This document shows positions 1 through 57,819 of a DNA stretch of 64,000 nt, one piece after another. Made by a program: the position numbers and the translations under genes. The stretch comes from a virus. Its lineage: Duplodnaviria; Caudoviricetes. Under the pieces are notes generated by a model. The model had not been told where the DNA came from. It saw only the letters and a list, made by a program, of their open reading frames with translations, and ran no database searches. How positions within the stretch are numbered: position 1 is the first letter of the stretch; every line of letters starts with the position of its first letter. The stretch lies in the IMG/VR virus record IMGVR_UViG_3300029305_005387; one strand, 5' to 3'.

Positions 1-307
1 AACCAGTAATGTGGAAGGTATAGTAAAAAGGTGTTAGGTAGAGAAAATCCGCAGCTAAGCATCTCTGAATAAGAGATGAAAGTTCAACGACTATCCCATT
101 AGGATCTGAATAAGATCAACAGGAGTAGGGCTGTAAGCTAATGACAGTGGGTGAGAATCCCTTAAATCGAAATGGAGGAACTCAGTGATGTATAATCACT
201 GGGAAGATATAGTCTCAACGTACTGCGAGAGCAGTAGAAGTTTAATTACGACTGTTAAAGGAGTAATAAGAACTGCACAGTGTTGCGAACTGTGTGAAGA
301 TAAATTG
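1..307 (+). mobile_element. Group I intron (3' portion, IA-like) in the RNA polymerase beta N-terminal subunit gene
   Basis: Q AATCCGCAGC (46-55), R GTTCAACGACTA (82-93), S AAGATATAGTCT (204-215); P7 GACTA/TAGTC; P8 hairpin 181-203; P9 TACTGC-GAGA-GCAGTA; terminal G at 307 restores the frame. Confidence 0.9.
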
Positions 308-853
308 GAAGATATTTTCATAACTAGATTATATTCTTCCGGGGTACTTAGATATGCAGAGAATGATTCTGATATGGATATGGGTATGAAATTGAAATAT
401 ACCGCAAAAGGTCCGAACAGTATCGGCAATGCGGACAATAGAAGAATCCCAATTCGTCAACGAACATTGCATCCTAGTATGGTGGGCTGGATTGACATCG
501 CAGACTCCTCATCTAGTGATCCTGGAAGATCTGGCTCATTGAGCCCATATAATGAAATGAAATCAATGTACTTTGATGAATCTCTTTATGAGAATGAAAT
601 GCATTATAAAATTGCTAAAATTCTTGATGAATGTCCTCTAGATGATGATTATGAGGAATTTAGAATCATTTGTGATAGTGAAGAAGAATATAATAAAGTA
701 TTAGATTCTTTATATCATTATGGAAATGATAAAATCAAAATCTTTGGAGTTACGAACAATCCAATGGAAATCATCATTGAGAAAGACCCTAGAGAAAATT
801 ATAGACAGTTTAATGAAGATGCATTTTTATTGTCAAAGGAAGAGAATAAATAA
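308..853 (+). CDS. 3' exon of split phage RNA polymerase beta subunit, N-terminal part (likely non-virion RNAP)
   Basis: KYTAKGPNSIG and HPSMVGWIDIADSSSSDPGRSGSLSPY align with RpoB SALGPGGL and [26 protein letters not shown]; the track start at 185 lies in the intron. Confidence 0.85.
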   Translation, partial: EDIFITRLYSSGVLRYAENDSDMDMGMKLKYTAKGPNSIGNADNRRIPIRQRTLHPSMVGWIDIADSSSSDPGRSGSLSPYNEMKSMYFDESLYENEMHYKIAKILDECPLDDDYEEFRIICDSEEEYNKVLDSLYHYGNDKIKIFGVTNNPMEIIIEKDPRENYRQFNEDAFLLSKEENK

Positions 854-57097: not shown

Positions 57098-57107
57098 CCT
57101 ATATTAT

Positions 57108-57184
57108 GGGCCTTTAGCTCAGTTGGTTAGAGCATCCGGCTCATAACCGGACGGTCCCGGGTTCGAATCCCCGAAGGCCCACCA
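57108..57184 (+). tRNA. tRNA-Ile2 (CAT)
   Basis: Canonical cloverleaf GGGCCTT...AAGGCCCACCA, loop CTCATAA; acceptor resembles Firmicute Ile2 rather than Met. Confidence 0.9.
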
Positions 57185-57409: not shown

Positions 57410-57485
57410 GCGTCTTTAGCTCAGTAGGAAGAGCAATGCACTTTTAATGCATGGGTCTGGAGTTCGAGCCTCCAAAGACGCACCA
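57410..57485 (+). tRNA. tRNA-Lys (TTT)
   Basis: GCGTCTT...AAGACGCACCA, loop CTTTTAA. Confidence 0.93.
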
Positions 57486-57745
57486 CTTCTCCGTATCGTG
57501 GGAGATTAATAAAATACACGAGCATCTTATATCAGTGAATAAGATGAGCCCAGTAAAATCTGACGTAATACCAAGCGGTATGAATGTAGTAAATAATCGG
57601 GGCTAATCTCTATAGTGATATAGAGCAGTTCATAAGAGAACGGGCTAAGATTAGCGACCTTAGTCGAATATTATTAAACCTTAGCACTCCTCGTGCGAGA
57701 GGCATCCTAGCCACAGGGAGTTGGAAGGATGAAAAAAAAGAGGGC
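57486..57745 (+). ncRNA. Unassigned multi-hairpin structured RNA
   Basis: GC-enriched non-coding stretch with about nine stems, between tRNA-Lys and a terminator. Confidence 0.5.
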
Positions 57746-57749
57746 AATT

Positions 57750-57795
57750 AATAAATTACCCAGAGGAGCTATGATGCTCCTCTGGGTAATTTATT
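57750..57795 (+). terminator. Terminator of the tRNA/ncRNA cluster
   Basis: 20-bp stem, 6-nt loop, T tail. Confidence 0.75.
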
Positions 57796-57819
57796 TTTAC
57801 TAAAAGGAGGGATTAATTT

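Follow-up and report, generated by a model that had tools for sequence, protein, structure and literature searches.

A probable composite RNA of intron-derived and pseudoknot modules at the 3' end of a phage tRNA operon

The window analysed here is a 64,000-nt stretch of the IMG/VR record IMGVR_UViG_3300029305_005387, a virus of the Caudoviricetes. It carries a tRNA cluster in the order tRNA-Met, tRNA-Leu and tRNA-Lys, whose final member is an element of 260 nt at positions 57486-57745. The first base of the element directly follows the encoded CCA of tRNA-Lys(UUU) (57410..57485, + strand; found by ARAGORN and scored at 67.6 bits by the Rfam tRNA model), which forms its 5' boundary in the predicted precursor transcript. 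Downstream, a 20-bp hairpin (57750-57795, -33.8 kcal/mol, z -10.25) and the T-run UUUAUUUUU make up an intrinsic terminator (57750..57798, + strand) that is predicted to close the tRNA/ncRNA operon, and the element is, by this arrangement, predicted to be co-transcribed with the tRNAs. It lies on the + strand, as the tRNAs do, and its G-U pairs (for example 57565-57585 and 57644-57664) fit that strand. An earlier note, made from the letters alone, had described a non-coding stretch running from the tRNA-Lys CCA to a terminator, and these limits hold, with no notable ORF between the two. The sole ORF touching the element encodes 24 amino acids (MKKKRAINKLPRGAMMLLWVIYFY; 57729-57803, + strand), starts in the 3' strand of hairpin 2 of module X (described below) and extends across A-run and terminator. 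A gene is unlikely here, and we did not retain the idea that X is a translated leader: the ORF is not conserved in the homologues of X, and the copies in L033-type phages have no start codon. No relatives of the 285-aa ORF downstream were found anywhere, and the IMG/VR relatives of the 177-aa gene upstream have neither tRNAs nor the element adjoining. The element is 100% identical in the ~20 metagenome contigs of the same phage species, and population variation, being nil, therefore provides no covariation. A strain variant (L010, JGI 3300018878), compared with window 57106-57151, has a different, Leu-like tRNA directly upstream of tRNA-Met and a double compensatory change in the anticodon stem of the latter (57135-36 TC->GA with 57150-51 GA->TC), while its element is unchanged.

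The minimum free energy fold of the element is stabler than those of shuffled sequences (z -3.07 on the + strand; 2/200 shuffles), and compensatory changes in homologues support most of the stems listed at first reading, which bears out the description of a structured ncRNA at the 3' end of a tRNA operon. The 5' part (57488..57521, + strand) consists of hairpin S1, whose TCTCC/GGAGA stem (57488-92 / 57501-05) is present and homologue-supported, and of a candidate H-type pseudoknot, PK1, in which an A-rich strand (57506-16) would be bridged by pairing of the S1 loop UCGUG (57496-500) with CACGA (57517-21). This region is identical at 34 of 35 nt in the homologue at locus L043, and a direct reading of the homologue at L032 gives AACGG/CCGUU at the place of S1 and AUCAU/AUGAU at that of PK1; coming from two sequence types only, the pseudoknot is suggestive. 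RNAfold chooses one or the other of the two helices. The 5' strand UUCUC(C) pairs either with GGAGA, as in S1, or with the 3' strands GAGGG/GAGAA, which RNAfold prefers, so that in the folding model the two ends of the element can pair in both ways. Next comes hairpin H-A (57523..57546, + strand; 8 bp, 8-nt loop), formed by CATCTTAT and ATAAGATG (57523-30 / 57539-46) and likewise supported by the homologues; its place is held by different hairpin sequences in L043 (ACaCCUUA/UAAGGcGU) and L032 (AACC/GGUU), and only 50% of its cells pair in the covariance-model alignment, which misplaces this hairpin.

The middle of the element (57547..57604, + strand) is closed by a helix, AGCCC/GGGCU (57547-51 / 57600-04), that occupies the position of P7 in group I introns and encloses a single hairpin, H-B (57564-86; ATACC-AAGC-GGTAT), and A-rich joining strands. 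Helix and hairpin had both been noticed earlier and both are supported by the homologues: the closing pair changes from A-U to U-A or U-G, and 5/8 pairs of H-B are changed on both sides while its AAGC loop is invariant. Three hairpins follow on the + strand, namely P9 (57608-25; CTCTATA-GTGA-TATAGAG, with a GNRA loop), P9.1 (57628-41; the GTTC/GAAC stem of GUUCAUAAGAGAAC) and P9.2 (57643-65; loop AUUAGCGAC). The first two had been read correctly. The third had been given as GCTAAG/CTTAGC, a pairing now superseded, as GCTAAG pairs with CTTAGT (57659-64), just as in canonical P9.2 hairpins; CTTAGC (57680-85) is, by comparative evidence, part of hairpin 1 of module X. Two long-range pairings that we considered, a GCTAATC/GATTAGC tertiary pairing and an AU helix between 57506-15 and 57668-77, are conserved in neither L043 nor L032 and were discarded.

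These comparisons show that the element does not behave as the single RNA fold first supposed. It is a composite of an upstream module (module 1, 57486-57671) and a downstream pseudoknot (57679-57744) that occurs alone elsewhere. This downstream part, module X, is a 65-nt pseudoknot (57679..57744, + strand) made of hairpin 1 (57679-702; CCUU-A-GCAC / GUGC-GA-GAGG, with the N5 loop UCCUC at 57688-92), hairpin 2 (57703-31), variable in sequence and length, an A-run (57732-39) and the 3' strand GAGGG (57740-44), which pairs with the hairpin-1 loop at 5/5 positions. The CATCC/GGATG stem reported earlier (57703-07 / 57727-31) closes hairpin 2 and is homologue-supported; the CCTC/GAGG stem gives way to GCAC/GTGC and CCTT/GAGG, with the 5-nt loop pairing GAGGG at 57740-44. 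We defined the family as a hairpin CCUUAGCAC-N5-GUGCGAGAGG, a variable second hairpin, an A-run and a GAGNN strand pairing with the N5 loop; the copy in the window fits this definition and scores 69.5 bits with the corresponding covariance model, R2, against which X copies score 64-81 bits. Four combinations illustrate the covariation of loop and 3' strand: UGCUC/GAGCA, UCCUC/GAGGG (the window), UUCUC/GAGAA and UGCUC/GAGUA. Over 6 loop/3'-strand combinations, 27/30 cells pair, counted by script because the length of the A-run shifts the window's row in the alignment; 1.7% of permutations reach 27/30, and slid registers give at most 18/30. Since the N5 loop and GAGNN covary, X is, on this comparative evidence, an H-type pseudoknot.

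Unrelated phages from gut and rumen also carry module X, again beside tRNA genes. A 292-kb relative (G001; 74% identity in the 177-aa protein) has a copy, as do 11 true metagenome loci. Scanning metagenomes for the stem pattern common to these copies gave 16 loci, among which L037, L038, L044 and L045 are chance matches and the others are phage tRNA islands. X was not found in INPHARED phages, an exact-pattern scan of 185,579 species genomes yielded no copy, and a looser X pattern gave mostly a protein-coding false positive in viral contigs. In G001 a tRNA-Met and a small hairpin are followed by a segment 88% identical to 57669-57709, and L033-type phages likewise have a tRNA, a small hairpin and X, without module 1. 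Because AACCUUAG is part of X in these insert-free loci, the intron-like module must end near 57671; for the same reason we rejected the idea of an intron inserted in the X RNA with a 3' splice site at CCTTAG|CAC, as AACCTTAG belongs to X in G001. Two minor observations concern X copies. In the window (GGGAG, 57716-57720) and in L043 (GAGAA), and not in other X copies, hairpin 2 contains a third purine stretch with complementarity both to the X loop and to the UUCUCC strand at the 5' end; it may permit alternative pairings or be due to chance. In G001 (locus L023, IMGVR_UViG_3300031555_003590, minus strand, ~1380-1440), X is followed by the 5' half only of a tRNA-Leu (GCCGGTGTGGTGGAATTGGCAGACAC...), which runs directly into a ribosome-binding site and ORF start and looks truncated.

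X might itself be the active part of the RNA, and the intron module just one of several interchangeable handles upstream of it. X could be a small ribozyme that cleaves itself, an element that senses a ligand or mediates antitermination, or a decoy of a host RNA, such as a pseudoknot that resembles a type III antitoxin and is cut at its A-rich flanks. X is the most widely shared piece, and its ~29 nt of primary sequence that are invariant across very different phages, together with a covarying pseudoknot, are typical of small ribozymes, aptamers and protein-binding sites. Every copy has some hairpin and an A/U-rich linker before it and GAAAAAAGAG after it; in L033-type phages, as in the window, there is also a terminator 10-60 nt further on. 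Against this, there is no terminator after X in L043, L034 or L032, no conserved downstream ORF, and no Rfam ribozyme, riboswitch or ToxI match at E<=10; its absence from the species genomes also leaves no known bacterial original to mimic. We consider such a role for X unlikely.

The upstream module has a recognisable ancestry. When the element was compared with 50,697 phage records by blastn, 338 records matched at E<=1e-3 (about 340-520 over 57603-57683), with 79-87% identity, and every match was confined to window 57603-57683; neither the 117 nt at the 5' end nor the 65 nt at the 3' end had a match in this collection. The homologous block, 57603-57671, is the 3' peripheral domain of phage subgroup IA group I introns (57608..57671, + strand: P9, P9.1, P9.2 and the tail GAAUAU). 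In all three matches that we inspected it lies at the 3' end of a homing-endonuclease-bearing insert in a split gene, in the final ~70-80 nt before the 3' exon: the thymidylate synthase (td) gene of Pseudomonas phage PspYZU05, the DNA polymerase gene of an Acinetobacter phage and the tape-measure gene of Lactococcus phage AM1. Further matches fell in T4 nrdB, and one was annotated 'Intron_gpI'. In the canonical introns (IA2, of the td/nrdB/Twort type) the block consists of P9, P9.1 (GUUCAUAAGAGAAC, almost invariant), P9.2 (loop UAGCGA) and the tail GAAYAU, and the J8/7-P7' motif AAGAUAUAGUCU, which is invariant, precedes it; GCAGTTCATAAGAGAAC and the P9.2 loop are common to the element and to the canonical introns both of relatives and of the same phage. 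The likeness extends upstream, to a helix in the P7 position and to H-B, whose pattern GUA-5bp-AAGY-5bp-GAA is that of P7.2. We would tentatively equate the two, although the MAFFT alignment to canonical 3' halves fits either P7.2 or P8 and the assignment is uncertain.

IA introns and homing endonucleases abound in the phage and its relatives, and the same phage carries a canonical IA intron at window 1-301 (+ strand), of which the 3' two-thirds are present, the rest being cut by the window start. This intron has CAACGACTATC at ~86-96, GGGAAGATATAGTCT at 201-216 and P9-type hairpins, and ORF 185..853 would contain its 3' exon. The element had been called unassigned at first reading, and this is right in so far as no Rfam family contains it, but ~70 nt of it are homologous to P9-P9.2 of phage group IA introns; likewise, the check for a known family, named then as a possible refutation, yields homology to part of the group I introns without membership. 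Neither at the gathering score nor at E<=10 did any Rfam 15 model, those of small ribozymes and riboswitches included, match the element, and this agrees with the earlier statement that signatures of tmRNA, RNase P, SRP and 6S RNA are lacking. The same library found nothing but tRNAs at loci L032, L033, L034, L036, L043 and L023. The Intron_gpI model (RF00028) did not match the element at E<=10, and the gathering scan also missed the canonical intron at window 1-300, which indicates that RF00028 is insensitive for subgroup IA. Searches with exact patterns found neither H-B/P9 in viral contigs, nor the 3' half of tRNA-Lys in viral and metagenome contigs, nor the 5' conserved segment in genome contigs, and we found no description of either module in the literature.

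Group I introns consist of a P4/P6 scaffold (P4, P5, P6) and a catalytic domain, P3/P7/P8/P9, whose P7 binds G (PMC3984707), to which subgroup IA adds the peripheral elements P7.1, P7.2, P9.1 and P9.2 (PMC2248736; PMC3984707). The element has the IA periphery, with P9, P9.1 and P9.2 recognised by blastn and by a covariance model and P7.2 probably represented by H-B, whereas P4-P6, P3, P8 and P7.1 are lacking. Only a hairpin (57523-46) stands between S1/PK1 and the P7-like helix in place of the P4-P6 domain. Between the P7 strands IA introns have P7.1, P7.2, the P3' strand and P8; the element has one hairpin there, and nothing equivalent to P7.1, P3' or P8. AAGATATAGTC is absent from 57486-57745 even with one mismatch allowed, and a direct reading of the same positions did not reveal AACGACTAT, which every canonical intron inspected contains. 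The R/S-type P7 and J8/7 sequences (ACGACUA ... AAGAUAUAGUCU), invariant in the canonical relatives inspected, are replaced in the element by GCCC...GGGGC. The splice-site context differs as well: S1 is Watson-Crick throughout, with a C-G pair at the putative site instead of the U-G splice-site pair of introns; there is no omega-G, as 57667-57683 contains no G and G57684 lies inside module X, where it is conserved in the insert-free G001; and no gene is interrupted, the flanks being a complete tRNA and a terminator. We therefore rejected a complete group I intron, ruled out by the missing P4-P6, P3/P8 and P7/J8-7 motifs and the splice-site context. With core motifs, omega-G and an interrupted gene all missing, the element is, as judged from four of the defining features, not a self-splicing group I intron. 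For annotation this means that BLAST or covariance-model matches to P9-P9.2 alone should not be called introns.

Could the element nevertheless be a working, reduced group I-type ribozyme that cleaves or splices the transcript just 3' of tRNA-Lys, for instance freeing the 3' trailer? S1 would then be P1 (5' exon UCUCC, guide GGAGA), AGCCC/GGGCU would be P7 and H-B would be P8. The order of P7, hairpin, A-rich strand, P7', P9, P9.1 and P9.2 is that of a group I 3' half, S1 with its 5 bp and 8-nt loop has the size of P1 in a td-type intron, the 35-nt 5' segment is nearly invariant between the window and L043, other group I introns reside in the same phage, and AGAUU (57503-07) with AAUCU (57557-61) offers a possible P3. 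That pairing is not kept in L032, where only 3/5 pairs form, and in L032 the module follows X, without UCUCC/GGAGA. Catalysis would also have to proceed without a P4-P6 domain, without the P7 and J8/7 sequences, without a U-G wobble at the splice site (C-G in the only stable register), without an omega-G at any plausible 3' end and outside any interrupted gene. Taken together, these points make a reduced ribozyme very improbable.

The homologues of module 1 bear on whether what is left of the intron is maintained. The homologue at L043, which lies on the same contig as L048, is full (76.5% identity over 226 nt), and that at L032 is a core homologue located downstream of its X copy, so that the module order is core-X in the window and L043 and X-core in L032. 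A covariance model, R1, built from the three sequences (window, L043/L048 and L032) scores them at 158-205 bits and canonical introns at 30-77 bits, the latter via P9-P9.2 only, and it recovered no further members among the DNA searched. The contigs with homologues share no detectable protein with the window. Each homologue alone folds to the same architecture. On the model-fitted alignment the share of paired cells is 92%, compared with 79% for shuffles and 34-48% for slid registers, and 13 pairs are changed on both sides, which 0/500 shuffles reach; as these counts come from three sequences and an alignment fitted to the model, the statistics lean towards structure. The two-sided changes are split between the P7-like helix (1), H-B (5), P9 (4) and P9.2 (3). 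Across the three homologues there is no variation in the joining strands or in the loops AAGC and AUAAGA. Thirteen two-sided changes combined with fixed loops in unrelated contigs argue for selection on structure, and the comparison points to an RNA that is kept for its fold rather than to a decaying relic.

The opposite reading, an internally deleted intron drifting inertly in the tail of a tRNA operon next to an unrelated X, would explain the missing catalytic core, as a deletion predicts. The IA introns and homing endonucleases of the phage and its relatives could generate such fragments, and a non-splicing insert would be harmless in a tRNA trailer. Drift, however, should not leave the same 'deleted' architecture in three contigs without detectable protein similarity, nor 13 compensatory pairs since divergence with AAGC, GAAUGU and GCAGUUCAUAAGAGAAC fixed, which is a signature of purifying selection; moreover, every hairpin in the window is perfect, and the homologue at L048 stands behind a consensus promoter of its own. 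We regard an inert relic as improbable.

That promoter is of the sigma-70 type, and downstream of the element version at L048 lie a tRNA-Ile and an HNH endonuclease that is free-standing; the X-bearing versions at L034 and L039 also lie behind a consensus sigma-70 promoter. The segment L048 9215-10953 (minus strand) begins with a gene for a complete 159-aa mini-GGDEF protein and a perfect TTGACA-17-TATAAT promoter, and continues with ~130 nt of extra folded RNA, the element and X, a 94-nt tRNA-Ile(UAU) and an HNH/NUMOD homing endonuclease. We considered the GGDEF gene as a split host gene and rejected this, since the gene is complete and the promoter separates it from the RNA.

Having weighed these alternatives, we favour, with a probability of roughly 60%, a composite structured ncRNA in which an exapted, intron-derived shell and the X pseudoknot form the 3' part of the tRNA-operon transcript; the identity and the architecture of the element, taken by themselves, are assigned with good confidence. 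Module 1 (57486-57671) would descend from a subgroup IA group I intron, of which it retains the periphery only: the P7-like clamp, one P7.2-like hairpin, P9, P9.1 and P9.2. Gone are the P4-P6 scaffold, P3 and P8, and so are the splice-site context and the sequences conserved in P7/J8-7. With core and splice-site context gone it would be unable to self-splice, and thus represents an exapted intron domain. Module 2 (X, 57679-57744) is an H-type pseudoknot that stands on its own and includes the variable hairpin as well as an A-rich strand. Processing of the tRNA 3' end would free the RNA, which may persist as a compact, stable molecule and act non-catalytically. In cis it would be a nuclease-resistant cap for the folding or stability of the tRNA transcript; alternatively, in trans, it would bind protein or serve as a decoy. 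RNA stability or processing and protein binding are our best guesses for its role, and any specific function is put forward tentatively at most.

Group I introns are known as selfish, self-splicing elements, and we know of no core-stripped intron shell kept under structural selection outside any gene. If our reading is correct, an intron shell without its catalytic core, selected for structure outside genes, would be a clear case of the exaptation of an RNA domain. Unlike the IA introns to which it is related, the element sits in a tRNA-operon trailer or in a promoter-driven ncRNA and is fused to a non-intron pseudoknot. The GIR1 lariat-capping ribozyme is also a group I-derived RNA with a new job and, like the element, a descendant that no longer acts as a splicing intron; GIR1, in contrast, has a complete, rearranged core, P4-P6 included, and is catalytic, whereas the sequence of the element, its core lost, gives no indication of catalysis.

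Phage tRNA genes are known to be accompanied by other structured RNAs. The stable RNAs 'species 1 and 2' of the T4 tRNA cluster (rnaC and rnaD) are non-tRNA structured RNAs of unknown function, as are the large phage RNAs GOLLD and ROOL (Rfam RF01998 and RF03087), which lie beside tRNAs. The element resembles all of these in being a non-tRNA structured RNA co-located or co-transcribed with phage tRNA genes, but it matches none of them in sequence or model, and it is modular (two or three units) and partly intron-derived. The comparison with GOLLD and ROOL drawn in the earlier note thus does not extend to kinship, as there is no Rfam match and the element is far smaller and unrelated. X, as an uncatalogued, sequence-conserved pseudoknot, adds to the increasing number of RNAs other than tRNAs known from phage tRNA islands, and the element bears on what these islands do beyond supplying tRNAs. 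In the window the order is tRNA-Lys, intron shell, X and terminator. The intron shell, exapted together with X, could also amount to a new class of phage RNA made alongside tRNAs with an active role of its own, which we think rather unlikely. Were this so, it might be a reduced ribozyme or an RNP that processes or protects tRNA-island transcripts, or else a decoy titrating a host or phage factor that recognises intron or tRNA-like RNA, and the adjacency of the modules in either order (core-X, X-core) would mean that they work as one unit. At ~65 and ~185 nt, the two modules are of a size that biochemistry and structural work can address directly.

The region around the X-core homologue contains further RNA modules. 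At L032 1480-3150 (+ strand), more than 1.6 kb of ORF-poor sequence lies 3' of four tRNAs and holds repeated modules, for example GCUGUAGUWAAAUGGAGU...GAACRGCC twice and GGACUCYCAAU..GGUGCAA..GAGCAGAGAG twice, with X and the core embedded among them. The first of these repeats is common to the arrays at L034 and L039, and the L034/L039-type array ends in module X.
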